Made by a program: the position numbers and the translations under genes
Assembly (NCBI GenBank): GCA_003194435.1
Contig: PQXC01000006.1
Coordinates: 3,981 to 67,980 of the forward strand
Direction: 5' to 3'
From: Candidatus Methanophagaceae archaeon
Lineage (GTDB): Archaea; Halobacteriota; Syntropharchaeia; Alkanophagales; Methanospirareceae
Length of the DNA: 64,000 nucleotides
Notes under the pieces: model-generated
Told to the model about the DNA's origin: nothing
Database searches by the model: none
Seen by the model: only the letters and a program-made list of their open reading frames with translations
In this document: piece after piece, positions 5,208-33,010 of the stretch
How the letters are laid out: each line of letters opens with the position of its first letter
Numbering within the stretch: position 1 is the stretch's first letter

Positions 5208-5312
5208 ATGTGTATATATTTTATTACCTCCTTTTCCTTTAAATAATTTTCTTTTTTAAGCGGGGCAGAGTGAATTTCGGACAACGCTCCGGGCGTATCT
5301 GAAGTTCCCCGA
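5026..5312. repeat. Direct repeat copy 2 (with internal insertions) of 3845-4086
   Basis: Same alignment as copy 1. Ends in the gggcgtatctgaagttcc motif, which is the left arm of structured repeat B. Confidence 0.6.
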
Positions 5313-5375
5313 AGGGGAATTTTGGCAGAGGTGCGAAGCACTGTAGCCAGATACGCTCTGTTATACGCCGTGCCT
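5279..5375 (-). repeat. Structured repeat B (inverted orientation), family AGGCAYGGCGTATAAC...GAGCGTATCTG...CAGATACGCYC...GTTRTC
   Basis: The reverse complement aligns almost base-for-base with 25473-25565. Contains an 11-bp inverted repeat gagcgtatctg / cagatacgc.c and UUCG-type hairpins (ccccttcgggg, gtgcttcgcac). The core gttatacgccgtgcct (5360-5375) abuts the OLD gene stop. Confidence 0.6.
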
Positions 5376-5376
5376 T

Positions 5377-7173
5377 TCATTCACTCACCAAGTTAAGAAG
5401 TTTTTCAACAATTTCTTTAAGCTCGTGATGCGTAGCGCCGTTCTCTTCATATTTATCCATCTCTAAAATCTCATCTACCCTCATATCCTCAATAATTTTA
5501 ATAACATTTTCTCCAAATAACTTTTTCATATCTGTAAACTCATCATATTGTTGTAAAGTCCTACCAGATCTTTGAATGACGTTAGGGTGAAGATAATTCT
5601 CTATTTCACGCTTTCGAAGAATAAAGAAAACACCTCCTTCTCGTTTGCACTGTTCTTTCCAATTAAGTTTCCTTTGAGGAATGCTGTCAGTTTGGCTTTT
5701 ACGGTCGCTATCCACAACAACGGCAAAACGCCGATTTAATCTCTTCATAGCTCTAAGGTCTATCCAATACTTTAAGTTGCTTCCACCTACAGGGATAAAC
5801 CCGATGTCTTTTTCATCAAAATTAGCTTCTATATGCCCCGCTTCTTTTAATTTGGATGCCACTGTTTTCCAAAATATAATGTCGTCATTACCTTCCACAA
5901 AAACACATGCTTTATACCCAGTTATCTGATCTGAAGGTTCGACGCCAAGCTCTTCTGCAATTTTACTTGTATTAAGGTCTGGAGACCGAATAGACCTTGC
6001 TACGCCGCCTTCGCGTACAATCAATGTCAAATCCTCTATTGGCGAGGCTCCCGCAAAGACGGGAGAGTGCGATGTAATAATGATTTGATACCCCATATCT
6101 GCAAGTTGCCTAAAAGAATACGCCAACTCTCTTTGAAGTCCCGGATGTAGATTATTTTCAGGCTCTTCAACCCCAAAAATAAAATTTGATGTATTTTCAT
6201 CTCGTTTTTCAGCTAAATATTGAAAGAAAGCTACCATTAAAAGTCGTCTTATTCCACTACCACGTTTATCAAGGGGCTTTTCAATTCCGCTATTATCCTT
6301 TGCCAGAATATCTATACTTACAGCTTTATCCCACGAAAAAGTCGGTTTAACTCTGAGAGTTGTTAGATCGCTAGTATGCCTTTTGAGTCGTTCAAATATT
6401 TCATCAACTTCTCTCTGAAGTGCCTCTTCTATGGCGCCGGTAAAGTTGCTTCTCACATCTGCAACTTCTTGTTGTTCGGCAGCCATTTTAATTATCGGAC
6501 GAAATGGACTCTGAAACGATGTTTCGCTTACATTGATTTTTGTTTCGGCTTCAAATAATTGAAAATCTGAAAGGTGTGACTTAATGCATTTCCACAGATC
6601 TCCTTTTGGAGAAACAACGAGTTCGAATTCTCCAAGTGGGATCCCTGCTTCATTTGCCTTAGCTCGAAGTTTTTCTCTTTTACTTTTATTAGTTAACCCA
6701 CGTCCTGCTTTTGAGACATCAATACCGGCTTGTTGGCACCGGCTGTTAAGTTCACGTTCTTTTAAGTTTACTAGACCTGCAAAATGTTCATTCTGAAAGT
6801 CCCAAGTAATAAAAGAAATTTTGACTTTAGTAAGGTCATTGCGTGGATATGTTTTCCGAATCCTAAGACGCCCTTCTTGATCGAGTAACATTTCCTCTTG
6901 AAATGATGTTTCAATTCCCTCCTCTATTTGGATCGTTTCTGGGATATCTGTAAAAGCAATTTCAATAATTACATCTTCATCAGGGTTGGCCATGTCATGG
7001 GTATCCTCACTTTCAATTTTAGGTTTATCTTCAAAAAATAATTGAATTGCTCGTAGAATGCTTGATTTCCCGGCATCATTTTTCCCAACTATTGTTGACA
7101 ATGGACCTAAACGTGTCTCTCCTAACACCTTAAACGGGCGATAGTTTCTAATGCTGATGCTATAAATTCTCAT
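5377..7173 (-). CDS. OLD-family ATP-dependent endonuclease (ABC ATPase + TOPRIM), class-1-like stand-alone
   Basis: Walker A GKNDAGKSS; signature-like LDKRGSGIRRLL; Walker B/D-loop IFGVEEPENNLHP; H-loop ITSHSP. C-terminal TOPRIM ACVFVEGNDD and VVVDSD (E...DxD). Start set at ATG 7173 (MRIYSISIRNYRPF), preceded by GGAGGTGA. The track ORF began on TTG at 7188. Confidence 0.8.
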   Translation of the reverse strand: MRIYSISIRNYRPFKVLGETRLGPLSTIVGKNDAGKSSILRAIQLFFEDKPKIESEDTHDMANPDEDVIIEIAFTDIPETIQIEEGIETSFQEEMLLDQEGRLRIRKTYPRNDLTKVKISFITWDFQNEHFAGLVNLKERELNSRCQQAGIDVSKAGRGLTNKSKREKLRAKANEAGIPLGEFELVVSPKGDLWKCIKSHLSDFQLFEAETKINVSETSFQSPFRPIIKMAAEQQEVADVRSNFTGAIEEALQREVDEIFERLKRHTSDLTTLRVKPTFSWDKAVSIDILAKDNSGIEKPLDKRGSGIRRLLMVAFFQYLAEKRDENTSNFIFGVEEPENNLHPGLQRELAYSFRQLADMGYQIIITSHSPVFAGASPIEDLTLIVREGGVARSIRSPDLNTSKIAEELGVEPSDQITGYKACVFVEGNDDIIFWKTVASKLKEAGHIEANFDEKDIGFIPVGGSNLKYWIDLRAMKRLNRRFAVVVDSDRKSQTDSIPQRKLNWKEQCKREGGVFFILRKREIENYLHPNVIQRSGRTLQQYDEFTDMKKLFGENVIKIIEDMRVDEILEMDKYEENGATHHELKEIVEKLLNLVSE

Positions 7174-7198
7174 TCTTTTCACCTCCAAAAAGATTTTT

Positions 7199-7214
7199 AG
7201 GCATGGCGTATAGC
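7199..7214 (+). repeat. Core-only copy (aggcatggcgtatagc) of the structured repeat family, inverted relative to 5360-5375
   Basis: 16-bp match to the conserved core. Together with 5360-5375 it forms 16-bp terminal inverted repeats bracketing the OLD-family gene (5360..7214, 1855 bp). Confidence 0.5.
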
Positions 7215-7242
7215 GTAGTATATTTGTTTTTCCACATCGGTC

Positions 7243-8835
7243 TCATTCAAGATAATTCTGGAAATACAACTCACTGACGAACTTCTCCATAAAATCCTGT
7301 TCCTCTTCCAGTTTTATATGCTCTATCCGCTTCGCCACTTCTTCCGCTTCGTTTCGCTTCCGTTTCGAGACCAGAGCCTGCCTGGCGCCTTCCAGTGCGG
7401 CATTACCCACCTTCTTCACCTTCTCTCGGGCGATCGGTGGCAGTAGTCCTATACGTATCGCATTATCCGTATTTGCGAAATTAACGAATCCACCTGCGAG
7501 TAATAACAGCTCTATATCATCGAAACTTATGCCATATTTCTCCAACAATACTCTTACACCAACGGCAATAGCCGTTTTAGCAAGGTTCAACTGGTCTATA
7601 TCAGTCTCCAATAGCTTGATACCATCGGCTATCCTCAGTTCCTTTCCCTCATCGCCCGTGAAAGTGAATTTACCCCTGCCATCTATCATTCCATGCTCCA
7701 GTAGCTCAGCCAGAACATCTATCAGTCCGGAACCGCAGATACCAACAGGAGGAGCATCTCCTATCGTCTTATATTTGATGCTACCATCCACTATTCGCAC
7801 CTCCTTTATCGCACCCTGCACGGCACCAACCCCACAGGAGATGCTGGCGCCCTCAAATGCCGGTCCCGAAGCGGCTGAAGTCGCAATTAACCGCTCCCTG
7901 TTGCCGAGCACAATCTCAGTGTTAGTTCCGACATCCAGCGCTAAGCATATCCCTTTACTCAGATACATCTCCGTTGCCAGCACCACTGCGAGCGCATCAG
8001 CGCCGACGAAACTGCCTATCAGTGGTAGCCCATAAACCCGCGCTTCAGGGTTAGCCGTGAGCTGGAGCTCCTTTGCTGTGGTGAGTGCCGGCTCAGTGCT
8101 CTCAGGCTCGTAAGGACTCTTACCCAGCGACTCTACGGAGAAGCCAAAGAACAGGTCTCGCATCACCGGGTTGCCCACAATCACGAGCTCATAGATATTT
8201 TCCTTAGTCTTTGCCACTTCGCTCATATTAGCAATCATCTCATTCACTGCGGTTCTTATCTCCCTCACCAGTATATCATGCCCCTGCCTCGCGTATTCTA
8301 TCCTGCTGATCACATTATTCCCGTATTTCGTCTGCGGGTTCTGCCTTGAACTCACTGAAACCACCTTCCCGGTCTCCAGATCAACCAGATAGGCAGCAAG
8401 CGTGGTGGTACCGATGTCAATGGCGATACCGTACAGCGCTCCCGTATACTCACCTATATATGTGGAGTTGTAAAATACCCGCTCGCCTTCACGGTGTACA
8501 AAGGGCTCTATTGGTATCCATCTATATTCGCCAGACTCCAGTATGTAATATCCACTCTTCGGTACTCTGACATATATCTGCTCGTCGGTTCGCAATATCC
8601 GCGCCTGACATGCGAGTCGCTGGTTTTCTGCTTTGATAAACTTCCTCTCTGAGTCGGTTACAGCGGAGAGCGCATCAGGTGGAGCATCCACCTCAACTAT
8701 GCACTGACCACATTTGCCCTCACCGGCACATGAAGCATCTATTTCTATTCCCAGTTCCTGTAGATAAGATAATATTGTCCGACCCGCAACGAGTTCCGCC
8801 TCTCTGGTCTGTCCATCCCTGAATATTATCTTCAT
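7243..8835 (-). CDS. Corrinoid activation/regeneration protein (RACo/RamA-like): 2Fe-2S ferredoxin + ASKHA ATPase domain
   Basis: N-terminal plant-type ferredoxin motif CAGEGKCGQC...C followed by a long DUF4445/ASKHA-like domain (GIAIDIGTTT, ALDVGTNTE, GICGSG). Start set at ATG 8835 (MKIIFRDG). The track ORF started at TTG 8859. Confidence 0.7.
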   Translation of the reverse strand: MKIIFRDGQTREAELVAGRTILSYLQELGIEIDASCAGEGKCGQCIVEVDAPPDALSAVTDSERKFIKAENQRLACQARILRTDEQIYVRVPKSGYYILESGEYRWIPIEPFVHREGERVFYNSTYIGEYTGALYGIAIDIGTTTLAAYLVDLETGKVVSVSSRQNPQTKYGNNVISRIEYARQGHDILVREIRTAVNEMIANMSEVAKTKENIYELVIVGNPVMRDLFFGFSVESLGKSPYEPESTEPALTTAKELQLTANPEARVYGLPLIGSFVGADALAVVLATEMYLSKGICLALDVGTNTEIVLGNRERLIATSAASGPAFEGASISCGVGAVQGAIKEVRIVDGSIKYKTIGDAPPVGICGSGLIDVLAELLEHGMIDGRGKFTFTGDEGKELRIADGIKLLETDIDQLNLAKTAIAVGVRVLLEKYGISFDDIELLLLAGGFVNFANTDNAIRIGLLPPIAREKVKKVGNAALEGARQALVSKRKRNEAEEVAKRIEHIKLEEEQDFMEKFVSELYFQNYLE

Positions 8836-8926
8836 CGTGCTAAAAAACCTTTCTTTCAAAAAGAAAGCTTTACCAAGATTATATTTATTTTATGTACCAA
8901 AATAAAAAAGAAAAAAATGGATTCGA

Positions 8927-9562
8927 TTATTCGAGCGATATTGTGGTCTTCTCTCCCCCTTCCTTCTTCTTTATCTTCACACTGAGCACACCGTTCTTAT
9001 ATGTCGCCTTCGCCGATTCCGGATCCACAGGTACATCAAAATTCACTTCTTTGTAGTATTTCCGCTCGTTCTCTGTCTTTATCTCAAGTGAATTCTCCGT
9101 TGCATGCAATTTTATATCCTTCTTCTCAACACCTGGCAGTTCCGCAACCACCTCGTAAGAATCTTTCTGCTCCACGAGATCAACTAATGGCTCACGCTCC
9201 GGGAACGGTTCTATACGTCTGAATGACGGTCTTATATTCCCAAACTCCTTTATCTCCGGCTCCTTACCCGGCTCCTTCGTGAAGGTGAACCCGTAGATGA
9301 AAGGTCCATATCTCTTTATCTTGCCTCGTGGCGTCTCCTCCTCAGTCACGAAATTCTTGAACTCCTCAGGCAATTCCTCCTCTAAGCGCTCCATCAAATC
9401 CTCAAACGGGTCTTTGAACCAATCCTCGATATCCAGCGACTCTCTCCTCCGTCTTCTGAACTCCTCCTCAAAAGGCAGTGGTAAACTCCGCATCTCCTCG
9501 AACATCCGCTCCATATACCGCTCCATCAAATCAAATATAGACGGTCTCCTTCTTTTCTCCAT
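8927..9562 (-). CDS. hsp20: Small heat shock protein (Hsp20/alpha-crystallin family)
   Basis: Alpha-crystallin domain SYEVVAELPGVEKKDIKLHATENSLEIKTE...ATYKNGVLSVKIKKKE. Confidence 0.85.
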   Translation of the reverse strand: MEKRRRPSIFDLMERYMERMFEEMRSLPLPFEEEFRRRRRESLDIEDWFKDPFEDLMERLEEELPEEFKNFVTEEETPRGKIKRYGPFIYGFTFTKEPGKEPEIKEFGNIRPSFRRIEPFPEREPLVDLVEQKDSYEVVAELPGVEKKDIKLHATENSLEIKTENERKYYKEVNFDVPVDPESAKATYKNGVLSVKIKKKEGGEKTTISLE

Positions 9563-9642
9563 CTTCCCTCACTCCTTATCTTTAATCACATAAAAAGGTT
9601 TGCATATGTAAAAAATAATTTACAATTAATTACAATCTACAA

Positions 9643-11556
9643 TCATCTCTTCTTTTCTTCTTTTACATCATAATCCACATCCACGTAATCGCCGCTTTCG
9701 CTTTCGCTCTCTTTTTTAGTGCCTTCCTCGCCCTTGCCCTTAGCCTGCTCCTTAGTCTGCCCCTGCCCCTGAGCTTGTGCCTGTTCCTGTGCCTTCTTCG
9801 CCGCTTCCTGATACACCACCGCCGAAATCTCGTGTAGCGCCTTCGTCAGTGCATCCATATCCTCCTTTATCTTCGCTATGTCTTTACCCTCTAACGACTT
9901 CTTTAGCTTCTCTCGCGCCTGCTCCACCTTCTCCCGCTGGTCTTTGCTTATCTTGTCACCAAGCTCGTTTATCGTCTTCTCTGAGGTATAAACGAGCGAG
10001 TCTGCCTGATTTCGGAGTTCCACCTCCTCTTTTCGCTTCTTATCCGCCTCACGGTACTTCTCCGCTTCCTTCACCATCCGGTCTATCTCCTCTCTTGAGA
10101 GCTTGGTTGAGGCGGTTATTCTTATAGAAGCGGCTTTGCCCGTGCCCAGGTCCTTCGCCGTTACGTTCAAAATGCCATTTGCATCAATATCAAATGTGAC
10201 TTCAATCTGGGGAACGCCCCTCGGTGCTGGCGGAATGCCATCCAGATGAAACCTCCCAAGCGAGGTGTTATCGGCAGCCATCGGTCTCTCACCCTGCACG
10301 ATGTGTATCTCTACCGATGTCTGATTGTCAGCAGCAGTGGTGAATATCTGCGATTTCTTCGTTGGTATCGTGGTGTTCCGCTCTATTATCGGAGTGGCTA
10401 CGCCACCAAGTGTCTCAACACTGAGTGTGAGCGGAGTAACATCGAGCAGAACTATCTCGTCCTTCACCTGCCCTGCGATTATACCCGCCTGTATCGCCGC
10501 GCCAATTGCCACCGACTGCATTGGGTCCACTCCCCCTTCGCCTTTCTTACCCATTATGCGTTCAAAATACCCGCGCACAATTGGCGACCTTGTGGGTCCA
10601 CCGATGAATATTATCTTGTCTATATCCTCTGGGGTGAGCTTTGCATCTTCTAACGCCTGCTTTATGGGTGCTTCTACTCGCTTCAATATCGGTTCTACCA
10701 GTTCCTCCAATTTAGCCCGCGTGAGCGTGGCTTCCAGATGCTTCGGCTCATTGCCAGAGACGGCAATGAACGGCAGATTTATTGTTGTAGAGACAGAAGA
10801 GGATAACTCTATCTTCGCCTTCTCCGCTTCATCCTTTATCCGCTGCATCGCTGTAAGGTCGTTACGCAAGTCTATCCCTTCTTTCGCTTTAAAACCCTCC
10901 ACCAACCAGTCTATTATTGCAGCATCTATATCCGCACCACCGAGATGTGTATCACCAGAAGTGGATAATACCTCAAATACACCCTCCCCTATCTCCATAA
11001 TCGTGACATCAAAAGTACCACCGCCGAAGTCGAGAACCGCGACCTTATATTCACCCTCCTTGCCGAGTCCATAAGCCATCGCCGCTGCCGTCGGCTCATT
11101 TATTATCCGTTTCACATCAAAGCCCGCAATCTCACCCGCATCCTTCGTCGCCTGCCGCTGGTTATCATTGAAATACGCCGGCACGGTGATCACCGCAGCA
11201 TCTACCTTCTCACCCAAATACGCTTCGGCATCCGTCTTTATCTTCTCCAGTATCATTGCTGATATCTCCTGTGGTGTGAACTCCTTATCTATGGTCTTCA
11301 CATATACCTTCTCTGCAGTTCCCATCTTCCGCTTTACTTCCATTATTGTACCCTCTGGATTGATAACCGCCTGCCGTTTCGCCGCCACTCCAACCAACCG
11401 CTGTCCATCCTTCGTGAATGCTACCACTGACGGAAACATCTTTCCACCGTATGCACTGCCTTCCGCACTGGGTATTATCTTCGGCTCACCACTTTCGTCT
11501 ATATACGCGGCTTCCGAGTTCGTGGTTCCAAGGTCAATACCTATTATTCTCCCCAT
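9643..11556 (-). CDS. dnaK: Molecular chaperone DnaK (Hsp70)
   Basis: [28 protein letters not shown]-type motifs along the full Hsp70 length. Acidic C-terminus. Confidence 0.95.
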
Positions 11557-11656
11557 TTTCTTCCCCTATATCATATCAACATCATACGTCATCAACAGAA
11601 GTAGATAACAATAAATGAGCTTGAGTGTAAAATAATAAAAAGAGAGAAAGAAGAAG

Positions 11657-13297: not shown

Positions 13298-13329
13298 CCT
13301 TCATCACCTCTAATTTTCTATATCTATGG

Positions 13330-13345
13330 TTCTATATAAATATTG
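13330..13345 (-). promoter_or_regulatory. Candidate TATA box (tttatata on minus strand) about 40 nt upstream of the thermosome ATG, with SD-like GAGGTGA at -8
   Basis: AT-rich intergenic region; pattern only, no experimental support. Confidence 0.25.
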
Positions 13346-13411
13346 CTATACTCAACCTATATAAAAATGTATTATATCCCTTATATATCCCTCATTGATT
13401 CACCGCGCTGT

Positions 13412-13483
13412 GCCCTGGTAGCATAGTGGCAATGCGCCACCTTGGTAAGGTGGAGACCGCGGGTTCAAATCCCGCCCAGGGCT
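13412..13483 (+). tRNA. tRNA-Thr (anticodon GGT)
   Basis: Manual cloverleaf: acceptor gccctgg/ccagggc; anticodon arm ccacc-ttGGTaa-ggtgg; T-arm gcggg-ttcaaat-cccgc; discriminator t. Confidence 0.8.
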
Positions 13484-13535
13484 CTTATGGCTCTTATCCC
13501 GTACGATGATAAGATAGTAAGATAGAGATAGTAAG

Positions 13536-22515: not shown

Positions 22516-22525
22516 TGAATGATGA

Positions 22526-24099: not shown

Positions 24100-24117
24100 T
24101 ATATAAAAGAGGATATA

Positions 24118-24687
24118 ATGAGTAGGAATGCGCGAGTGAAGCGGGAGACGAAGGAGACGAGTGTGGAGGTGGAACTTGAACTTGATGGTAACGGTGCCAC
24201 CAGGATAGACACCGGAATTAAATTCTTTGACCATATCCTCACTGCTTTCGCCACTCACGGGTTCTTTGACCTCGTTGTGGATGCGGAAGGTGACCTGAGC
24301 CATCATATCATTGAGGACACTGCTATCACGCTCGGTAAAGCGTTCAAAGATGCAATTGCAGCCGATAGGACGAAGACCGTGCGGTATGGTCTCGCTGCGG
24401 TGCCCATGGATGAATCCATTGCGAGATGTGCAGTAGATATAGGCAGTATAGGTGGAGAGGGTAGAAGTTATACGGTCCTGGAACTGGGCTTGGCAAGGGA
24501 GCGGGTTGAGGACGTCAGCACCGAGGACATACCCCATTTCCTAAATTCTTTCGCATCTCATGCAAATCTCACACTCCACATATATGCACGGGGCGGTAAC
24601 GAGCACCACAAGATAGAAGCGATATTTAAGGCGCTTGGAATTGCACTGGATAAGGCAACGAGGGTAGAAGAGAGGAGGGTAAAGTAA
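24118..24687 (+). CDS. hisB: Imidazoleglycerol-phosphate dehydratase
   Basis: RETKETSVEVELELDG, FFDHILTAFATHG, HHIIED motifs. Confidence 0.9.
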   Translation: MSRNARVKRETKETSVEVELELDGNGATRIDTGIKFFDHILTAFATHGFFDLVVDAEGDLSHHIIEDTAITLGKAFKDAIAADRTKTVRYGLAAVPMDESIARCAVDIGSIGGEGRSYTVLELGLARERVEDVSTEDIPHFLNSFASHANLTLHIYARGGNEHHKIEAIFKALGIALDKATRVEERRVK

Positions 24688-24769
24688 TACAGTAACGCGA
24701 ACACGTATACTATACCCATTTCTTGAATAAAACCAATTTACGGGGTAGTAAACATAGAGCTCAAGGGGC

Positions 24770-24839
24770 GATCCGCTAATCTTGATGACCCAAACCCTTA
24801 CGGGCTTCGCATACCCGCAAAGCGTTATACGCCATGCCT
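24770..24839 (-). repeat. Diverged, inverted copy (D) of the structured repeat family; core gcgttatacgccatgcct at 24822-24839
   Basis: Reverse complement reads ttaggcatggcgtataacgctttgcgggtatgcgaagcccgtaaggg. Shares the 16-18-bp core with 7199-7214, 5360-5375 and 25473-25488. Confidence 0.5.
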
Positions 24840-24848
24840 AAGAGGTAG

Positions 24849-25278
24849 ATGAAGATGAGAAGAAAGATAAGAGTATACTTGGTCACTTCGGTAATTTCAG
24901 CGCTATTTGATGAAAGGAATCCAGAGAGGAAATCACTCACAGAAGCTTTTTTCGCGGAAATAGATAATTTTGAGACTTTCATCCCGCACTCCCGACATGG
25001 AACTCCAAAGCAAATTGAAGGATGCAGTATCGCGATTTTCAGTGCTCTCTTTAACCGATGACGTTGAATGGGTAGCGCGCGAGTATATCCCAGTTCCAGA
25101 GAGTTACTCTGAGGATGCCTACCATATTGCCATCGCTGTTATAAACGAGGTAGACTATCTTTTGAGTTGGAACTTCAAGCACATAGTGAGGAGGAAAACG
25201 AGAGACATAGTGAGGATGGTAAATACTTTAAATAACCTGAGACAAATAGAAATTATGGCACCTGCAGAATTGCTATAG
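24849..25278 (+). pseudogene. PIN-domain (VapC-like) toxin gene split by a +1 frameshift; first catalytic Asp replaced (RVYLVTSVISAL)
   Basis: ORF 24849..25061 carries the N-terminal PIN strand (vyLDTsvi-like). ORF 24970..25278 in the +1 frame carries the C-terminal PIN half (DAYHIAIAVINEVDYLLSWNFKHI). Confidence 0.55.
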
Positions 25279-25287
25279 GAGGCAGAT

Positions 25288-25614
25288 ATGAGCAAGATTA
25301 AGGAAGAAGATATTGAGAACATAAGAAAAGCCATAGAAAAGGAGTTTCCAGAAGACCCTGCTTTACAACAGGTTCACATCGCGAGGAAAATCATTGCTAA
25401 AGAAGCGCAACTTGAAGGATTAAGTTTCTTTGAATACGTCAAATTGTTGGGGAAGCGAGTAGTTAACAATGAAGGCACGGCGTATAACAGAGCGTATCTG
25501 GCTTCGGTTATAGCCTTCGCCAAAATTCCCACGCGGGGAACTTCAGATACGCTCGGAACGTTATCTGCAATTGCTTGGCTTATAGTGAGGTGTGAAAATG
25601 GGACGTCTTATTAA
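25288..25614 (+). CDS. Hypothetical protein (108-aa ORF whose C-terminal 45 codons run through structured repeat A)
   Basis: ORF only. The 3' third is encoded by the repeat, so the native stop is probably lost. Confidence 0.3.
   Translation: MSKIKEEDIENIRKAIEKEFPEDPALQQVHIARKIIAKEAQLEGLSFFEYVKLLGKRVVNNEGTAYNRAYLASVIAFAKIPTRGTSDTLGTLSAIAWLIVRCENGTSY
25473..25565 (+). repeat. Structured repeat A (reference copy): AGGCACGGCGTATAAC-aga-GCGTATCTG-[two hairpins]-CAGATACGC-tcggaac-GTTATC
   Basis: Seen directly. 9-11-bp perfect inverted repeat, internal GGCTTCGG...AGCC and TTCCCacgcGGGGAA hairpins, ATAAC/GTTAT outer inverted boxes. Confidence 0.6.
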
Positions 25615-26950
25615 AATACACGATATAGACGAGTTTTCAGAAGTCAAAACTATCCCAGATGCAACTATAAATAACGAAATACTGACTAACATCAGAAATT
25701 TAGATGAAAAAAAGGAACTGGAGCGTTTTCTTCGAGAAATTTTATATGATCCAAATGAAACTCCTCATGGTCCTACGGAAATAGCAGATATATTGACAAA
25801 TGTACATGTTAGAGGAGATAAGCGATTAACTGCTTTTGTTTTGAAAGGAAAAAGCTTCCAAAGAGTTTCAAGTAGACATGTAACTCATCAATTCGCTAAA
25901 CTCCGGCAAATCTCAGAACTCGGTTTGATGGTTTTTGGAGCAGTCGGGAATATCCAAGATGATGCTCAGAGAGATTTTGTGCAAATAGCTATTGATGCAG
26001 GATGTGACTATCTTATCATGGATGCTCAGGACTTGGCACGCTTGTTTATTGCCTATGAAAAAATCTGTCCAAAAGATGGGACACCTTATGATGATACAGG
26101 CACATGTAAAAAAGGGCATGTGCGAGATAAGGGTTTGCCTTTAGAAATGGAAGTAAGAGAAAAAATACGATACACCATTGTAAATCAAAAAGACGTAAGC
26201 CACGCTGGAGCCAAACGTTACTCTGCTACTATTCTTTTAGACAGGCATTATCCTAAGGATGTAATTAGAACAATTATTCAAGAAGCAACAGAGAAGCTGA
26301 AATATAGCAGTTATTACCGTAGTGAACGACTGAAAGCACGCTGGGGGAAAAATCCTGCTCATGTAGTGTGGCTATTCATAGCTTATGACTTAGAGGATAT
26401 TCAAAATGCAAATTGGGTCTGTCGTACTTGTTGGATAGATCCATCGTTAACAAAAGATATGCGTCCTGTTGATTTAAATGGTAATGAAAAACTCGGAGAT
26501 ATAGAAATCCTTTGGAACGATGACTATAAACCATATAAGAACTTCTTTGAAACTTTCTCTGGCACGAAGGAGGAATTTTTGGGAGCCATTCAGCCCATAT
26601 TGAATGAAATGATAGAGTTTGCTAAACGAGCAATTGAGTATTTTGAAGAATACCGCCGAGGGAACATTCCTGAAGAGGAGTTGATCTTGAGGATGCAAAA
26701 GATGGAACCAAGGGTCACGGAATTTTACTTGCAATCAGGAAATATCCCTATGCCTCCCGAAGACTGTAAGGACTATGACCAAGCTTGCCAGAATATTTTT
26801 GCTACTATCCACGATATGTTTCTCTATTTTTCTAAAAGAGGGTTAGAAACATGGCCTAAACGAAATAGAGATTGGTTAATGCAGGACACTATAAAGCGAT
26901 TTTATAATGATATGAATAGGATTAGATTTGAAGAGACTAAGATACATTGA
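25592..26950 (+). CDS. Hypothetical 452-aa protein, island cargo (possible nuclease-like N-domain)
   Basis: Long intact ORF with no recognisable motif beyond a possible alpha/beta N-domain. Bounded by repeat A upstream and half-repeat C starting at its stop codon. Confidence 0.55.
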   Translation: MKMGRLIKIHDIDEFSEVKTIPDATINNEILTNIRNLDEKKELERFLREILYDPNETPHGPTEIADILTNVHVRGDKRLTAFVLKGKSFQRVSSRHVTHQFAKLRQISELGLMVFGAVGNIQDDAQRDFVQIAIDAGCDYLIMDAQDLARLFIAYEKICPKDGTPYDDTGTCKKGHVRDKGLPLEMEVREKIRYTIVNQKDVSHAGAKRYSATILLDRHYPKDVIRTIIQEATEKLKYSSYYRSERLKARWGKNPAHVVWLFIAYDLEDIQNANWVCRTCWIDPSLTKDMRPVDLNGNEKLGDIEILWNDDYKPYKNFFETFSGTKEEFLGAIQPILNEMIEFAKRAIEYFEEYRRGNIPEEELILRMQKMEPRVTEFYLQSGNIPMPPEDCKDYDQACQNIFATIHDMFLYFSKRGLETWPKRNRDWLMQDTIKRFYNDMNRIRFEETKIH

Positions 26951-26951
26951 T

Positions 26952-26976
26952 ACTTCAGATACGCTCGAAACGCTAA
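26952..26976 (+). repeat. Half copy (right arm, cttcagatacgctcgaaacg) of the structured repeat family
   Basis: Matches the right arm of repeat A in the same orientation. Begins immediately after the TGA of the 452-aa gene. Confidence 0.5.
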
Positions 26977-26977
26977 G

Positions 26978-27739
26978 TGGCAAAAAGAGTTTACAAGAGG
27001 GTTACAGGAGCTCCTAAAATCCTATGTAGATAGGGAAGCGACAAAAAATTATCAAAGGATTATCCCAGATACTGGAAAATTTTATGGAGTTCCACTTCCT
27101 GTTTTGAGAATAATATCTGCCGAAATAGGAAAGTTTATCCAGAAAGAACCAACAAAAGCTACGACATTGTTAGAAACTATCTGGGATGAAGGTTCCTTTG
27201 AATCAAGACAGATAGCAGGGAAATGCTTAGAGAAGTTTGGTCCAAAGAATCCAAAAATTTGTTTAGATTTTGTCTCTTCAGTATTACCTGATCTTGATAA
27301 TTGGGCTGTTTGTGATAATCTTGCCATGTGTGGAGTAGAACCAATAGTTTATTCCAATCCGGAACTCGTTTTACCTCTCTCTGAAAGATGGATTAAGAGC
27401 GAGAACAAATGGATCAGGCGGTTTGGAGTGGTAAGTTTACGAGGATACAAGAGAATCCAAATAACAGATAAAGCTTTCGAGATTCTTGATCTGGTCATGG
27501 AAGACAAAGACAAAGATATAAAAAAGGCGGTATCGTGGGTTTTGAGAGAAATAACAAAGAAGAATCCAGATGGGGTGGCAGAGTTTTTAACACGATGGGC
27601 AGAGGCAAAGCCAGATAAGAATGCGAGATGGATCATAAAGGATGGGATGAAAAAGCTGCCAAAAGAAATGCAGACTGAAATCTTAACTTGGGGTGCACCC
27701 CTAAAAGTAGACAGTAAGTTAAGAAATAAGAAAAAATGA
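26978..27739 (+). pseudogene. AlkD-like DNA alkylation repair (HEAT-repeat DNA glycosylase) gene, start codon lost at 5' end and 3' end reading into the IS3 inverted repeat
   Basis: Open frame from 26951 with no ATG/GTG until TTG 27104, yet the upstream codons encode the conserved AlkD N-terminal region (LQELLKSYVDREATKNYQRIIPDTGKFYGVPLPVLRIISAEIGK). Same frame as the 452-aa ORF, separated by one TGA. The last 17 codons (WGAPLKVDSKLRNKKK) are IS terminal-repeat sequence. Confidence 0.55.
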
Positions 27740-28071
27740 AAAAGGGGTGCAAGATGAAAAGAAGGAGGCAATATACACGGGATTTCAAAATTGGTGTAAT
27801 TAGAGAGGTCGAGAGTGGAAAAACGCTTGCCCAGGTGTCACGTGAGAACGAGATACATCCATCTCTCGTGGTGAAATGGAAGAAGGAATACTTTAGGGAC
27901 CCGGAAAATGCCTTTCGTGGCAACGGGAAGGCATATAAAGAGCAAGCAAGGATGGCAGAGCTTGAAAGGCTGGTTGGGCAGTTATACGCAGAAAACGAGT
28001 TTTTAAAAAAAGCATTGACCAGATTGGAAGTCAAAATCAAGGAAGAGGAGGTAAAAGAAGCACGGGGGTGA
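27736..28071 (+). CDS. IS3-family transposase OrfA (HTH)
   Basis: RRQYTRDFKIGVIREVESGKTLAQVSRENEIHPSLVVKWKKEY, leucine-zipper-like C-terminus. Confidence 0.85.
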   Translation: MKKGCKMKRRRQYTRDFKIGVIREVESGKTLAQVSRENEIHPSLVVKWKKEYFRDPENAFRGNGKAYKEQARMAELERLVGQLYAENEFLKKALTRLEVKIKEEEVKEARG

Positions 28072-29003
28072 AATACATGCTCATAAAAGAGAGTCTCGAA
28101 TCTGGAAGCCAAATATCAGTAAATCGAGCCACGCAATTATTGGGCGTAAGCAGATGCGGGTTCTATAAGTGGCTCGGGCAATCGAAGACCGGACAGGTGA
28201 ACGCCATACCGGACATGGACGTTAGAAACGAAATACAGAAGATCGCCGTGGAGTTCCCCGCATACGGATACAGACGGATAACCGCCGAACTCCGGAATCG
28301 TGGTTATTCGGTGAACCATAAACGTGTACTCAGGCTCATGAGAGAAGACAATCTCCTTTGCGTTCGTAAGGATTTTAAGCCAAAAACCACCGATTCCAGG
28401 CACGATCTCAGGGTCTATCCCAATCTTGTGAAGGGGTTGAAGATAACCCGATTGAATCAGGTATGGGCTTCCGATATCACTTATATCCGTCTATCGGGCG
28501 AATTCGTCTACCTGGCGGTAATCCTGGACCTCTTCAGCAGGAAATGCATCGGATGGAATCTGGATAGAAGCCTTCACACAGAACTGGCGTTAAAAGCTCT
28601 GGCTATGGCAATAGAAACACGCTGGAATGAGAACCTGCGGGGACTGATTCACCACTCAGATCAGGGAGTTCAATATGCCTCGGAAGAATATATCGGATGT
28701 CTCAAAGCGCATGGAATCCTGATCAGCATGTCAGCGCGTGGCAACCCCTACGATAATGCATTCGTAGAGAGCTTCATCCGGACATTGAAGTATGAAGAGG
28801 TCTATCTCAATGAATATGAGACCTTCTCCGACGCCTTAGATAATATCGCTCATTTCATAGAGGACGTATACAACAAAAAGAGGCTGCATTCTGCCATAGG
28901 GTACCGCTCTCCCATAGACTTCGAGAAGGAAATGGAGATGGAGATGGAGATGGAAATGGAAAAGGGGGTGAAAGCATCGAAAGTTTTAAATACTGTTTCT
29001 TAA
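28068..29003 (+). CDS. IS3-family transposase OrfB (rve integrase core, DDE)
   Basis: WASDITYIR...HHSDQGVQYAS...NAFVESF (D, D, E triad region). In the -1 frame relative to orfA. Confidence 0.85.
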   Translation: MKYMLIKESLESGSQISVNRATQLLGVSRCGFYKWLGQSKTGQVNAIPDMDVRNEIQKIAVEFPAYGYRRITAELRNRGYSVNHKRVLRLMREDNLLCVRKDFKPKTTDSRHDLRVYPNLVKGLKITRLNQVWASDITYIRLSGEFVYLAVILDLFSRKCIGWNLDRSLHTELALKALAMAIETRWNENLRGLIHHSDQGVQYASEEYIGCLKAHGILISMSARGNPYDNAFVESFIRTLKYEEVYLNEYETFSDALDNIAHFIEDVYNKKRLHSAIGYRSPIDFEKEMEMEMEMEMEKGVKASKVLNTVS

Positions 29004-29052
29004 CTAGTTGTATACTAACAGGGGTGCACCCCAACTCTTTTAGATTGAGAAT

Positions 29053-30183
29053 ATGACAAAATTCATCGAAATCGAAGCGAAGAGTATTTTACAGAAGTAT
29101 AAGTTTAGAGATGATTGGTTCTGGAATCGTTACGGGGTTAACCCTTATCGTGGCTGCCAGTTCGCATGCAACTATTGCGATGCGATAACAGAGAAATATC
29201 TTGTGCATGAATCCTACAAGGATTTCTCAAGGATAATTTATGTAAAGAAGAACGCTCCCGAAATCTTAGGAAAAGAGGTTAAAAAGTTGAAGCCAGATGT
29301 TGTTGCTATGTCCGGCGTTACTGACCCCTATCAGCCCGCTGAGAAGAAATATGAGTTAACAAGGAAAATGTTAGAGATTTTAGCAGAGCATAGGTTTCCG
29401 GTTCATATTATCACGAAGAGCGATTTGGTCTTAAGAGACGTTGATTTACTGCGAGAGATAGCAAAACAGACCTGGTGTACGGTTTCCTTAACAATTATAA
29501 CCTTCAATAAGGAGTTGTTGCCCTACCTGGAACCGTTTGCACCTTCGCCGGAAAGGAGGTTAGATGCAGTTGATAAGTTAAATAAGGAAGGAATACCGGC
29601 AGGTGTTGACTTTACACCCATTGTACCATATCTTTTGGATGGTCCAGAAAATATTGAAGAAGTGATCAAAAGGGCATCTGAATGTGCACAATATATTCTA
29701 ATCGGTGCAGCAATGACTCTGAGAAGTAATCAACGCATAAGATTCTTTGAATTATTAAAAACAAATTTTCCTGAACTCGTGGAAAAATATAAGAATTTAT
29801 ATGGAGAGAAAGAGAATCCTCCACAAGATTATATTGTGAGGCTAAATGGTCTTGCATTTGAGTTTTGCAAGGAATACGGGATAAAGAATTATATTGAGCC
29901 GCCGAGCTTTGAAAGACCTCTCAAAGAGAATTTTGATGTGGCAAATCATTTATTGTTGATAGCGTTTTTCAAAGAATTCAAATCAGCAAATCCTTATTCC
30001 GCGTGGGCTTATCATAGGGCATCTCAAAATATAGAAAACTTAGATGAGAGCATAAAGGAGATTTATAAAAAAGGAGAATTAAAAAAGATTCAAGGTGTAG
30101 GGAAGAGTATCGTTAAGATTATTGAAGATTATTTAACAAATGGGAGCAGTGAAAGATTGGATAAGGAGATTAAGACATGGTAA
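29053..30183 (+). CDS. Radical SAM DNA-repair photolyase family protein (spore-photoproduct-lyase-like, COG1533) with C-terminal helix-hairpin-helix
   Basis: CQFACNYC (CxxxCxxC); overall SplB-like length; C-terminal KIQGVGKSIVKIIEDY HhH motif. Confidence 0.7.
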   Translation: MTKFIEIEAKSILQKYKFRDDWFWNRYGVNPYRGCQFACNYCDAITEKYLVHESYKDFSRIIYVKKNAPEILGKEVKKLKPDVVAMSGVTDPYQPAEKKYELTRKMLEILAEHRFPVHIITKSDLVLRDVDLLREIAKQTWCTVSLTIITFNKELLPYLEPFAPSPERRLDAVDKLNKEGIPAGVDFTPIVPYLLDGPENIEEVIKRASECAQYILIGAAMTLRSNQRIRFFELLKTNFPELVEKYKNLYGEKENPPQDYIVRLNGLAFEFCKEYGIKNYIEPPSFERPLKENFDVANHLLLIAFFKEFKSANPYSAWAYHRASQNIENLDESIKEIYKKGELKKIQGVGKSIVKIIEDYLTNGSSERLDKEIKTW

Positions 30184-30268
30184 ATATAAATAAAAATCAA
30201 CTCACTACGAAAGAGAAAAACAGGAATAAATTTGCTTATTTCTGGATAAGTTTTTATATCTCGCAATA

Positions 30269-30792
30269 GTGATAGTCTCGGCCATTTGGACATGGCGGCA
30301 GCCTTTTCAAGATAATATACTATATCCACATCTGCACGATGTATCAAATATGCTTGGTGGAATTTTATTAGGAATATTGGCTGCTTATTGGCTTTCAAGC
30401 CAGGAGAAGTTAATAAGTTTTCTGATACCAATCGCTATAATAGATTTCATCAGTTTTACACGGTTTGGAAGGTGGACTCCTAATCGGAAATTGATTGAGA
30501 ATAAAACATTTGCAAAAAGCTATCGGTTTGCATGCCCATTCCAGGTTTCTCAGGATTCTATCAAATAACTGGCATTGGAGATATGTTTGTTTTTGCCCTT
30601 ATTGAGGGGGCCACTCTAAAAATTTGGGGAATACATGCTATTTGGATGGCTATCAGTGCTATCATTGTTGGGCAGATTCCGAACGTTATTGGTATGCTAT
30701 CTTTTAAGAACAAGCCGTGGTACCGTGGAATTCCAGCAACTTCGTTCCCTGTTTTGATTTTTGTTACAATCGTTTTAGGGTATAGCTTATGA
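30269..30792 (+). pseudogene. Membrane protein gene split by a frameshift (ORFs 30269..30568 and 30532..30792)
   Basis: Two overlapping hydrophobic ORFs in different frames. Confidence 0.35.
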
Positions 30793-30817
30793 GATTAACA
30801 AGAGAGGGGTAAAAAGC

Positions 30818-31177
30818 ATGGATAAAATAATGAGCACAGGAAACTCAAAAGCTGCAAATCCATGGCGGTTTTTTGCCCTTGCTCCTGGCATTTCGTGTTT
30901 TTTTCTGGATGTGGGTTGTATTGTTGGCGTTCTTGCAGGCTCACCGTGGCCAGAGTTTGAAACAGCCAGAAATCTGCTGTCTGAACCCTGGAGAATTCTT
31001 CCTTTTGCCGTTTTTATCCTGCTCTATGGTCCATTACCGGAAGAGCTGGGCTGGCGCGGTTATGCTCTGGATGGGCTGCAGGTGAGATATAATGCACTAT
31101 TCTCAAGTCTGATACTGGGCGTGGTAAAATGCTTGAAAAAGCACATTGGAAGCCCAGATACGAGAAAGAAGGCATAG
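30818..31177 (+). pseudogene. Truncated CPBP-family (CAAX/Abi) intramembrane metalloprotease
   Basis: Motif 1 EELGWRGY (EExxxR) present, but the ORF stops at 119 aa before the FxxxH / HxxxN motifs. Confidence 0.5.
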
Positions 31178-31490
31178 AGGTCTTCGTAAGCCGAGGAACC
31201 ATGCTGCGCATAATCCTCACACCATTGACCCTGAGATAGTGAAACAACACCTTCCTGGCTCTACCCTCTTTCGGATAGCCCGCTAACATGTTTAAAGAGG
31301 CGATGTGCGCTCGGAACTCCATAGTTCCGGAACTACTGGATAAAAATAAAGAAACCTCCATGACCCCCAAGGGGGACACCCATGAACATGAAAATAAGAA
31401 AGTATTTTCATACCAAATAATAAGTTATAAATCAGGATGTGTATAGGTAAAGTAGGTTGAGGTGTTTTTTTCAGAGATGATAGAGGATAG

Positions 31491-32720
31491 ATGATAGAGG
31501 ATAGCAGACTGTATGGGCATCGTATGTCCGAATGGCAGCAGGTGCGGCAATTAGCGCAGTTCCACGTCTATCTCGATCCAGAGACGGGGATGGCTTATAC
31601 ACATCCTGAGTTCCTGCCACCGATCATTCGAAACAGGCTATTACCAAAGCTCGGGTTTGAATCACATAGCCAGAGAGCGTTCTTCATCATCACAGATAGC
31701 CACCAGCTTGTGGAGTACAAGGGGCTTGTCTATCCCTATTCCAATGACAATGATATAGAGATAGTGCCGGCAAGTGGACAGCCCTGGGGCATGCTCTTGA
31801 AGGAGCATGGTGAACGTGAAGCAATGGCATTGAATGCAATTGCAAGGCGAATCGGTGGTGTCTATGGTGAGTATCACGATGCGGGAGTGGCAATACAGAA
31901 CCGAGAAAGAGAAGGTGGTGAGATAATACATTACGGCGTTCTCAGGCGCTGGAGTGATGATTACGATTATGCTTATGCTTACATACCTTTTATTAGGCTT
32001 GACCTCTTTGATGCTGTGAGGCGACTTGCCACGCTGGAGGGCACGTCACATATCGAACTGCTGAAGAGTGCAATGGCGCGATTGGGCTTGATATTGAGGA
32101 CTGCACATGAAATTGGGATTTATCACTGCTTCACGCATCCGGGTAATATAGATGCACATGGCAACCTTGTGGATTTCGAGCATGCAATCTGCAGTGCAGA
32201 GATTCCGGTGCTGAAAAGACTATGCCTGAATGGAAGTGAGTTACTGGATGATGCACATCTGCGATATCGAGACATTGACCTCTTCTTTGCTGGCGCTCGT
32301 GAGATTCTGCACAGATGTCAGACATGCTTTAAACTCTCTCGTGATGAGTTAATGAAGAAGATAAGGTTTCTGCGTGAGAATATATCCATCACAGTGGGTA
32401 TACCTGTTTTTGAGGTTCTTGCACATCTGAATATCGGGTTTTACGAGGATACACTGAAGAGACTCCCGTTCTGCTACCAAGAAGACGTAATAGGAGCGTT
32501 TGTTGATAGCTATTGTGAATCTGGGTCAGGGTCGGAAGTGAAGCGTGGTATCTTCTCAGAACTGCTCAGACATGGCAAATGGACACCGAAGGCGAGTGGA
32601 TACATCATCAATGCCGGGAATCCACTACCAATGCAGCAGATACCAAATGAGCTCATATTAAAGCTCTGGAATATGGCGCCACTCAAGAAGAAAGAGAAAG
32701 TGTTCAGCCCCCTCCACTAA
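31491..32720 (+). CDS. Protein-kinase-like fold protein (APH/RIO-like), possibly a pseudokinase
   Basis: IYHCFTHPGNIDAHGNLVDFEHA resembles the catalytic-loop/DFG region hGDlHpgNi...iDFg, but with Phe in place of the catalytic Asp. 409 aa, otherwise no recognisable motifs. Confidence 0.45.
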   Translation: MIEDSRLYGHRMSEWQQVRQLAQFHVYLDPETGMAYTHPEFLPPIIRNRLLPKLGFESHSQRAFFIITDSHQLVEYKGLVYPYSNDNDIEIVPASGQPWGMLLKEHGEREAMALNAIARRIGGVYGEYHDAGVAIQNREREGGEIIHYGVLRRWSDDYDYAYAYIPFIRLDLFDAVRRLATLEGTSHIELLKSAMARLGLILRTAHEIGIYHCFTHPGNIDAHGNLVDFEHAICSAEIPVLKRLCLNGSELLDDAHLRYRDIDLFFAGAREILHRCQTCFKLSRDELMKKIRFLRENISITVGIPVFEVLAHLNIGFYEDTLKRLPFCYQEDVIGAFVDSYCESGSGSEVKRGIFSELLRHGKWTPKASGYIINAGNPLPMQQIPNELILKLWNMAPLKKKEKVFSPLH

Positions 32721-32952
32721 CTACCATTCGGCAATCTATGAGTAGAAATAACACCTATAACAGCACTGAAAAGAAGGTCCAAAAATTCTTCTTTTAAGAT
32801 ATTTTTGGTGTATCCATGGAATCTGAATTCTATAAGGTAATGTGGCATTTTTATCTGTTGTAGGTCTTTACTTAAACTGGAATACAAATAGTCAATTATA
32901 GAATACAAATCACCTAAATTGTTTGGATTTACAGGAGGAAGTGAATGACTTG

Positions 32953-33010
32953 CGAAATGGCGTATAACAGCGGATAAAAGGCTTCGATGCTTCACACCTT
33001 CGCCCAAGTG
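32953..33010 (+). repeat. Copy E of the structured repeat family (ggcgtataacagcgg...ggcttcgatgcttcacaccttcgcc), right half diverged
   Basis: Shares the GGCGTATAACAG core and the ggcttcg..ccttcgcc central part with repeats A and B. Lies at the boundary between the accessory island and cofH. Confidence 0.45.

Follow-up and report, generated by a model that had tools for sequence, protein, structure and literature searches.

Repeat sites in two gene islands

The DNA analysed here (the window) is a stretch of 64,000 nucleotides from a Candidatus Methanophagaceae archaeon (assembly GCA_003194435.1, contig PQXC01000006.1, positions 3,981 to 67,980 of the forward strand), and the subject is a family of structured repeats that punctuate two islands of accessory genes in it. 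These islands are two decaying cassette arrays, one on the minus strand after the RACo gene and the other on the plus strand between hisB and cofH, and both have a GC content below that of their surroundings. By its HisB and IF-2, which are those of a metagenome-assembled Candidatus Methanophagaceae genome, the window is chromosomal DNA of anaerobic methanotrophic archaea of group 1 (ANME-1; Methanophagales). The minus-strand array carries, in order, an OLD nuclease gene, the remnant of a tyrosine-recombinase (integrase) gene with an attI-like site, a 202-aa open reading frame (ORF) and further genes. The plus-strand array carries a PIN-like gene, a 452-aa ORF, a DNA_alkylation gene and further genes (Table 1). 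The repeats are very probably cassette-associated recombination sites, functional analogues of the attC sites of integrons, in an integron-like gene-capture platform.

Table 1. Features of the two cassette arrays in the 64,000-nucleotide window
Feature	Position	Strand	Description
Repeat A	25472-25574	+	Intact attC-like site; R1 101.7 bits; predicted crossover G|TT between 25560/25561
Repeat B	5271-5376	-	Intact attC-like site; R1 106.2 bits; predicted crossover G|TT between 5285/5284
Repeat C	26951-26982	+	attC-like site minus 76 nt at 5' end; triplet GCT for GTT at 26972-26974
Repeat D	24787-24824	+	3' half of attC-like site, 3' of hisB; G|TT between 24824/24825
Repeat E	32952-33057	+	Degenerate attC-like site at cofH-side island edge; R1 29.8 bits
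Repeat X	4313-4428	-	Decayed attC-like site; R1 17.9 bits, E = 0.018
16-mer core	5360-5375	-	
16-mer core	7199-7214	+	1 mismatch
16-mer core	24824-24839	-	
16-mer core	25473-25488	+	
OLD cassette 5' start	7199-7214	-	Reads GCTATACGCCATGCCT, distal R' arm; complementary to repeat B 5' flank AGGCACGGCGTATAAC
OLD-family ATPase/TOPRIM nuclease	5377-7188	-	Single-gene cassette; Pfam AAA_15, OLD-like_TOPRIM; PADLOC AriA, Old, GajA
Tyrosine-recombinase remnant	5160-5219	-	Last ~20 codons (IYTHVSNKDIGEIKSPLDSL), catalytic Tyr motif included; tblastn with L192 integrase
attI-like site	5020-5095	-	Complete; aligns with sites after intact integrase genes in 13 other loci
202-aa cargo gene	4378-4986	-	Weak XhlA-like C-terminus; first cassette past attI remnant
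176-aa membrane protein cargo gene	3270-3800	-	Homologous to 144-aa ORF, second cassette of L192 array
Cassette 1 body	24825-25471	+	Start arm TTATACGCCATGCCT; two-frame ORF pair; small ORF from 25288
Cassette 2 cargo, 452-aa ORF	25592-26950	+	No Pfam or PADLOC family; 98.9% identical cassette in L122
Cassette 3 cargo, DNA_alkylation repair-like protein	27104-27739	+	Pfam PF08713; 3' end overlapped by left end of insertion sequence
IS3-family insertion sequence	27688-29034	+	39-nt terminal inverted repeats (TTGGGGTGCACCCC...); OrfA and rve-like orfB

At two or fewer mismatches, the window contains four occurrences of the 16-mer AGGCAYGGCGTATAAC, against 0.01 expected from shuffled sequences. 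A covariance model of the family (R1), whose structure was set by hand from single-sequence folds and checked by pair counts, recovered repeats B, A, E and X and nothing else credible. The structured repeat family of the original prediction, made from the letters of the sequence, is therefore real. There are six sites, of which A and B are intact at ∼106 nt and D, C, X and E are decayed. Five of the six copies first proposed (B, D, A, C and E) are kept as sites; the sixth, at 7199-7214, is dropped, since what was taken for a core-only copy is the start of the OLD cassette, and X (4428-4313, minus strand) had been missed. Repeat D had been described as inverted and diverged; it is in fact the plus-strand 3' half of a repeat that is complete in a related strain, and the next cassette begins with what had been taken for a core (24825-24839).

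Repeats A and B adopt the architecture foreseen for them: an outer TATAAC/GTTAT box, an 11-bp arm (GAGCGTATCTG/CAGATACGCTC) and two inner hairpins. They had been called near-identical, but their identity is ∼83-95% depending on the segment and the first inner hairpin differs. Their RNA fold z-scores are -2.2 and -2.9, within a range of -2.2 to -4.0 among folded copies. Direct alignment shows that E has the 5' half in common with A and B, while C and X share only the 3' arm ACTTCAGATAC...GTTA, and the D locus and 7199-7214 only the core.

The decay of the other four sites can be traced in part from relatives, which are referred to by locus number (L). In X, the P1 5' arm and the whole of P2 are deleted; the recognisable remnant (∼4377-4313) retains the 3' arm and GTTAGGCGACAT, with G|TT between 4327/4326. 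Strains L241 and L243 have a full-length D in the corresponding position (58 bits; L241 7076-7178). The half-copy C is indeed a repeat site, and its corrected extent, with the 5' deletion, was read off the intact counterpart at 1517-1622 of L122, where the cassette is 98.9% identical. E has a counterpart at 11537-11642 of L241 (32 bits), and no significant fold was obtained for E when the DNA of both strands was folded.

A widespread family with a covarying fold

A gapped-pattern search located the same element at no fewer than 120 metagenome loci (more than 120 among the matches listed), and the counts of contigs, arrays and cassettes given below rest on these. The consensus reads nnGnnACR, GCGTATAAC, A and GAGCGTATCTG in its 5' part, hairpin P2, CAAAT, hairpin P3 and ACTT in the middle, and CAGATACGCTC, GGAAC and GTTAnnYGAAAT in its 3' part. 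Family-wide, the conserved element begins at GCGTATAAC; AGGCAY belongs to one subfamily only. In the predicted fold, an extended R stem (GCGTATAAC × GTTATACGC, ∼13 bp in the cognate circular form) is followed inward by a 5-nt bulge, the 11-bp stem P1 and two variable hairpins. One locus from a Guaymas metagenome-assembled genome (MAG), L065, has the same small ORF and then the repeat, and there both inner hairpins have diverged in sequence with their stems kept.

To assess the fold, we counted paired positions in 150 model-aligned copies. Some 90.9% of cells were paired, compared to at most 44% in slid registers, and cells with changes on both sides of a pair numbered 697 versus 219 ± 11 in shuffles, none of 500 shuffles being as high. 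Covariation was seen in every helix, including nine of the 11 P1 pairs. One caveat here is that this alignment was fitted to R1 and is hence biased toward structure; an independent MAFFT alignment pointed in the same direction (171 double-change cells versus 63.5). RNAalifold run on the raw MAFFT alignment chose a wrong register (GCGTAT × ATACGC), and its structure was replaced by the single-sequence folds. The AAC...GTT pairs are retained in 137-139 of 143 distinct copies, the triplets themselves being essentially invariant. Collectively, these data show that the sites are under selection for intra-strand pairing.

Could the conservation reflect a coding function instead? One frame (AYNRAYLAS...TSDTLGT) is open in most copies, a Shine-Dalgarno sequence (SD) and ATG often lie 6-33 nt upstream, and 95 of the 123 copies differ in length by multiples of three, all of which would suit a small conserved peptide. 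However, the ATGs of the flanks inspected lie in two different frames, the open frame is broken in ∼11 copies, third codon positions are invariant, and compensatory changes in the stems alter the peptide. We consider a peptide-coding role extremely improbable.

Several controls bear on the specificity of the model. Across ∼680 kb of unrelated loci, the only R1 matches were further family members, namely genuine relatives in Chloroflexia, Desulfotomaculum and Leptospira yanagawae. Repeats of L. yanagawae are ∼180 nt long and show the cognate complementarity and the C.A position (see below) of the rest of the family. A scan of the genome collection with the 16-mer core returned nearly all chance matches; it yielded L065, and L013, L049 and L066 are true relatives by R1. 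The viral contigs scanned gave no match to the repeat. With Rfam, the window yields only two tRNAs at the gathering score, and near repeat A there is only a chance-level match (E = 3.7).

Some repeats carry one or two extra hairpins of the CCCTTCGGG and ACCCTTACGGGT types within the extended R stem (5' flanks of L152, L201, L204, L236, L149 and L175; also L257 10950-11010). In L152, a much larger composite structured element with the same end (..CCGTTGTGCGAAAT) lies 3' of the repeat. The site family thus appears to be modular.

Cassette arrays and a signature of circular permutation

Two or more copies are present on 75 of the 122 contigs, and in 73 of these all copies point the same way, with a median spacing of 974 bp; L192 and L165 have five copies each. 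Of 99 distinct segments between repeats, 94 have their longest ORF on the strand of the repeats (P = 2e-22). Typically, the upstream gene stops just 5' of the repeat or at the TAA within GTATAAC, and the SD and ATG of the next gene come after the repeat.

These arrays follow a simple rule: the bases 3' of GTT in one repeat are the reverse complement of the bases 5' of AAC in the next. In L192, for example, GTTAGGCGAA pairs with CTCGCCTAAC and GTTATACGCCATGCC with AAGGCACGGCGTATAAC. Over 95 non-redundant neighbour pairs, a cassette start and the flank of the repeat closing that cassette were complementary at 9.05 of 14 positions, compared to 6.07 for the two ends of one physical repeat and 6.14 ± 1.9 for random pairs. 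Ten or more matches were found in 46 of the 95 neighbour pairs versus 4.7% of random pairs. Such complementarity is expected if cassettes are circles with one complete site, opened at G|TT. Circular permutation also accounts for the inverted 16-bp cores that had been noted on either side of the OLD and PIN cassettes; each such pair is a cassette start facing its own site.

Cognate stems that matched well numbered 61; in these, Watson-Crick pairing at positions 1-6 and 9-13 reaches at least 80%. At position 8, 52 of the 61 have C facing A on the sense strand, which is G.T on the other strand. This position is the Y of the motif first reported, and in the window it corresponds to the pairs 5365/7204 and 25478/24834. 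The conserved C.A/G.T position may be a strand-selection mark.

Comparison of related loci shows cassettes changing places at the repeat boundary. The window, L192 and L189 share the OLD cassette with 98.5% identity over 1943 bp, and three different sequences precede it there; homology begins at TATACGCC, the start at 7199-7214 in the window. The small-ORF cassette with its repeat has at least 10 unrelated downstream continuations, diverging right after ACGTTA. Finally, contigs with identical HisB and core flanks ∼98-99% identical carry different cassettes 3' of the conserved CGTTA of one and the same D-type repeat. At this point the window has PIN, L241 and L243 have a 93-aa ORF, L242 has the DNA_alkylation gene and L245 has yet another cassette. 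Comparison of related genomes had been proposed as a check, and the strains differ exactly where a cassette system predicts.

The co-orientation, the sense-strand ORFs, the complementarity and the strain swaps bear out the idea that attC-type sites delimit cassettes here in the manner of clusters of attC sites lacking integrases (CALINs). They argue against a miniature inverted-repeat transposable element (MITE) or a dispersed repeat akin to repetitive extragenic palindromes (REPs). The novel MITE once suggested was rejected on the grounds that orientation is strictly tied to flanking genes and arrays and that the flank complementarity spans the whole cassette, not the element.

A related possibility is that the repeat is chiefly an RNA-level element (a stabiliser in 3' untranslated or intergenic regions, a terminator or a processing site) that spreads in REP- or MITE-like fashion and has no cassette behaviour. 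It would suit the sense orientation directly after stop codons, the common TTCG loops and the RNA fold z-scores. Yet it fails to account for a cassette start being complementary to its own repeat, for the strain-level replacement at GTT or for the linkage to an integrase and attI (next section); orientation is non-random, Rfam holds no match, and no target-site duplications were noticed in junctions read by eye, no scan having been made. We judge this alternative very unlikely.

A dedicated recombinase and an attI-like site

The original prediction proposed searching for a tyrosine recombinase near the repeats. A motif screen followed by tblastn found such a gene, or a fragment of one, upstream of the repeat and on the same strand in 14 contigs. 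The complete layout is seen in L192, where hdrA is followed by int (2138-3190), a non-coding region of 130 nt and five repeat-terminated cassettes, of which the fourth is the OLD cassette of the window. The region 3' of int is conserved in 13 loci plus the window remnant, and we term it attI-like. It contains two palindromic units (GGATGTATATGCGAAC-n4-GTTCGGATATA) whose inner stems covary, and it ends in AGTT| followed by the cassette-start arm.

No intact integrase gene is present in the window, as had been stated. There are, however, a 20-codon remnant and a complete attI-like site, both coming right after repeat B. The palindromic units of this site are GGATGTATATACGCA..TGCAGATATA and GATATATGCAG..TGCGGATATA, and it ends in GGAGTT|AGGCGACATTGGGC, which places the predicted crossover between 5022/5021. 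The 202-aa cassette sits at the attI GTT, and its start, TTAGGCGACATTGGGC, is complementary to GCCCAACGGTCGCCTA 5' of repeat X. Given an integrase cut to 20 codons and truncation of four of the six sites, the two arrays are largely fossil or dependent on an integrase in trans.

Two observations on array boundaries may be recorded here. The sequence 3' of repeat B, TTGTCCGAAATTCACTCTGCCCCGCTTAAAA (5284-5220, minus strand), recurs after the last repeat of a Methanotrichaceae array (L251 18050-18090; also L125), and in the window it precedes the integrase remnant; this stretch may mark where an array ends, in which case two platforms would stand in tandem. In the MAG locus L255 (6950-10000), repeats and cassettes lie on both flanks of the integrase gene, and the start of the block adjoins what by eye is a tRNA-like gene.

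The L192 integrase comprises the domains Phage_integrase and Phage_int_SAM_4. Among proteins of known structure, VchIntIA is its closest relative (E = 8e-47), ranking above archaeal XerA. When it is compared with VchIntIA (2A3V), residues 174-237, which hold the IntI-specific insertion (I2), have no counterpart, 22 aa standing in place of 64 aa. It passes the NCBIfam XerA_Arch model (NF040815; 244.6 bits, cutoff 220) and fails the integron-integrase model TIGR02249 (239 bits, cutoff 265), where the match falls in two stretches. A conserved N-terminal extension of ∼70 aa (..IKIFFPYNPDHIAKIKTIGGYKWHAEGKYWSIP..; L192 2138-2350) belongs to no Pfam family and might bind the attI palindromes.

We then extended the search to the protein database, which holds 7483 relatives of the integrase at E ≤ 1e-30, with 60-77% identity to the L192 protein in Methanotrichaceae, Thermoplasmatota, Methanocellales and Thermodesulfobacteriota. 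Six homologue loci were followed up (Methanotrichaceae, Thermoplasmatota, Thermodesulforhabdus norvegica, a Thermodesulfobacteriota MAG and two untyped MAGs). An attI-like region was found in all six, and R1-positive, co-oriented repeats in all four that had enough downstream sequence; these repeats separate restriction-modification systems and other cargo. When the plasmid collection was searched with the integrase, only distant relatives (<60% identity) and no annotated element of this kind were found. The closest of these are truncated 'TnpF'-type recombinases on Acinetobacter plasmids (for example NZ_CP104735.1 and FJ012881.1), with 53% identity over residues 115-347.

Comparison with integrons and Xer/dif systems

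The resemblance to integrons, including sedentary chromosomal ones with conserved attCs such as the Vibrio VCRs, is extensive. In both, co-oriented and mostly single-gene cassettes end in a foldable imperfect palindrome with an invariant AAC...GTT; the crossover point is placed at G|TT; each cassette opens with the distal half of the site before it and matches the site at its own end; a tyrosine recombinase and an adjacent attI head the array; integrase-less arrays are common; and cargo is rich in defence, restriction-modification and toxin-antitoxin genes. The differences concern both the enzyme and the site. The recombinase of the present system lacks the IntI-specific I2 domain, falls below the integron-integrase cutoff and has the extra N-terminal domain, and here int is co-directional with the cassettes, with attI at its 3' end, an arrangement that differs from most bacterial integrons. 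The repeat sites have no extrahelical bases: P1 is a bulge-free stem of 11 bp, the junction is asymmetric (1/5 nt) with no symmetric unpaired spacer, the core is a three-way junction, and there is a conserved strand-asymmetric C.A (= G.T) position.

The attC covariance model of IntegronFinder had been suggested as a check. In its stead we used a surrogate (R2) built from eight archaeal attCs and attCaadA7, and R2, which is not IntegronFinder's model, matched none of the more than 20 repeats with filters off and E values up to 10. By this surrogate, the repeats do not have the canonical attC architecture.

Integrons have been described in archaea. Ghaly et al. (2022, Sci Adv, PMC9668308) reported arrays and CALINs in archaeal MAGs, including those of ANME-1, Methanoperedens and Methanotrichaceae, with attI directly following intI, toxin-antitoxin and restriction-modification genes enriched in the cargo, and IntIs described as having the IntI-specific domain. 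The attCs tested there (Data S9) are short canonical sites of 58-97 nt (AAC-AAnTC-...). The system described here is like theirs in its ANME-1 arrays and CALINs, in having attI downstream of the integrase and in its defence-type cargo. It is unlike theirs with regard to the I2-bearing IntI and the short attCs, by comparison with the Data S9 sites. Smyshlyaev et al. (2021) noted that the insertion is 'not fully conserved' in an integron-like recombinase subgroup, with no element assigned to such proteins. The literature searched contained no description of an I2-less integron-like system, although its coverage was incomplete and this is not proof of absence.

Given these likenesses, might the arrays be canonical CALINs, made of ordinary attC sites served in trans by an I2-bearing IntI encoded elsewhere, with the linked Xer-like gene incidental? 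Three hallmarks of integrons are indeed seen, namely the AAC...GTT boxes, the layout of the arrays and the permutation signature, and the IntegronFinder-based study lists CALINs and one IntI in ANME-1 MAGs (PMC9668308 Data S1/S3). Against this stand the I2-less integrase and conserved attI that head arrays in 14 contigs and at six of six homologue loci, the failure of the nine-attC model to match the repeats, and the structure of the sites, with neither a symmetric unpaired spacer nor extrahelical bases. We regard canonical CALINs as an unlikely explanation.

The other obvious point of reference is the Xer/dif family: archaeal XerA, integrative mobile elements exploiting Xer (IMEX) and the pdif modules of Acinetobacter. 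A system of this kind, in which the host XerA acts on a dif-like 'attI' and cassettes exploit dimer resolution by double-strand recombination, would explain why the integrase satisfies the XerA_Arch model. The arms are 11 bp long and of the TTATnnnAAAT type, and the cassette-start arm TTATAYGAAAT presumably resembles the 11-bp Xer arm of E. coli dif. With the ∼76-nt P1-P2-P3 module extruded, moreover, the flanks could be read as an 11/∼8/11 dif-like core. However, the recombinase has its additional domain of ∼70 aa and is found as decayed remnants beside arrays, and its 60-77% identity across archaeal and bacterial phyla fits a dedicated, horizontally spread paralogue rather than a housekeeping gene. 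The sites are likewise different, being structured, ∼106 nt long and set in direct arrays, in contrast to the 28-bp (11-6-11) cores and inverted site pairs of dif modules, and the strong P1-P3 covariation indicates selection on intra-strand folding. The dif-module option of the original prediction is thus not supported as such, Xer-like as the recombinase is, and we consider a Xer/dif system quite improbable.

The platform is best described as integron-like, with an I2-less recombinase intermediate between XerA and IntI, and not as a canonical integron.

A model for cassette recombination

Covarying helices, the complementarity of a cassette start to its own flank, and strain cassettes that differ after CGTTA together point to recombination at the conserved GTT. 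In the model that we favour, a cassette consists of one or a few co-directional ORFs followed by the ∼106-nt foldable element. Once folded or extruded, the site would offer two duplex arms of ∼11 bp (the R stem and P1) across a single-stranded junction of 5-6 nt, and this two-armed structure could mimic a Xer-type core. The dedicated tyrosine recombinase encoded at the head of complete arrays would cut at the invariant G|TT, exchange would take place between attI and a repeat or between two repeats, and cassettes would excise as circles and re-insert. Recombination activity, judged here by its traces in sequence, is thus presumed, as is catalysis by this integrase. Single-stranded or extruded hairpins would be the substrate.

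As to which strand folds, hints favouring the bottom one, as is the case in integrons, come from the TTCG loops and from the C.A/G.T position. On the opposite strand, TTCG loops read as GAA triloops with a C-G closing pair, and such triloops are unusually stable in DNA. In DNA folds of both strands, the bottom strand was slightly better, which is not decisive. Wobble pairs in the R box were dropped as a strand indicator because the 3' half of the box belongs to the neighbouring cassette.

Several points weigh against this model. No recombination product, that is, no circular cassette or excision junction, was seen, and the window itself lacks an intact integrase. The integrase is without the I2 insertion that canonical IntI needs for folded single strands, and the chemistry may therefore differ from that of integrons. 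The metagenome copies are partly redundant, and hence the counts do not represent independent events. Wobble counts (101 for the bottom strand versus 70 for the top) indicate a mild preference only, and TTCG loops fit a sense-strand RNA tetraloop and an other-strand GAA DNA triloop alike. An additional sense-strand role at the RNA level may exist.

The upstream SD and ATG of many 5' flanks, and the frame open through the repeat with its length pattern, are also features that the recombination model does not account for. They can be seen at L159, L169, L177 and L209, and in the window at 5204-5380 (minus strand) and 25288-25614 (plus strand).

Significance

Integrons are thought to have arisen from a Xer-like recombinase that gained the I2 helix and with it the recombination of folded single strands. 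We tentatively suggest that the family forms a distinct cross-domain lineage, spanning ANME-1, Methanotrichaceae, Thermoplasmatota, Thermodesulfobacteriota, Chloroflexia, Desulfotomaculum and Leptospira, in which an I2-less XerA/IntI-like recombinase shuffles cassettes via ∼106-nt three-way-junction hairpins. If so, cassette capture by folded sites would not require the I2 innovation, and the system would either represent the ancestral state of integrons or have solved the same problem independently. A full integron layout with an I2-less integrase would make the origin and minimal requirements of cassette capture open to experiment, for which there are cultured array carriers in T. norvegica, where the integrase is also present, and L. 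yanagawae. For ANME-1, the platform would explain in concrete terms how defence genes (OLD, restriction-modification, toxin-antitoxin) turn over among strains of these uncultured methane oxidisers. The 60-77% identity between archaeal and bacterial integrases suggests a cassette pool common to both domains, and current annotation tools probably miss such elements or misname them, for example as 'XerA / integron integrase'.

Cargo and other features of the window

The stop codon of RACo lies 28 nt before the start of the OLD cassette. The absence of a full repeat upstream of this cassette suggests insertion at a secondary site. Look-ups for an empty site next to RACo, made with two alternative start codons, found no record.

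The 'PIN' gene of the plus-strand array is split across overlapping frames (24849-25061 and 24970-25278). The ORF pair has no Pfam match, its second frame matches neither Pfam nor PADLOC, and the gene is probably a frameshifted pseudogene. The DNA_alkylation gene, which occupies the third cassette here, lies directly 3' of the D-type repeat in strain L242. Further cargo of the window includes a radical-SAM/HHH protein and several ORFs without a family.

An 84-nt segment 3' of repeat C (26963-27046) recurs inverted in the minus-strand island (3146-3229) with 87% identity. It is closer to L241 7563-7631 (95.7%) than to its own second copy in the window, and it may be a recurrent cassette leader.

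The IS3-family insertion sequence (IS) lies within the hisB-cofH array, is outside the cassette system and is absent from L241. The other island has an isolated 52-nt end of this IS at 3082-3133, with 100% identity. At the edge of that island, an 85-aa ORF (2668-2925, minus strand) resembles by eye a fragment of an IS110-type transposase (DEDD N-terminal region).

Unrelated to the cassette system, the window contains long repeated coding sequence between 40600 and 62000, with six to eight tandem units of 273 bp at 50.6-53.4 kb and 300-nt blocks common to 40.9, 42.2 and 55.2 kb. These look like genes for large repetitive proteins, possibly surface proteins.

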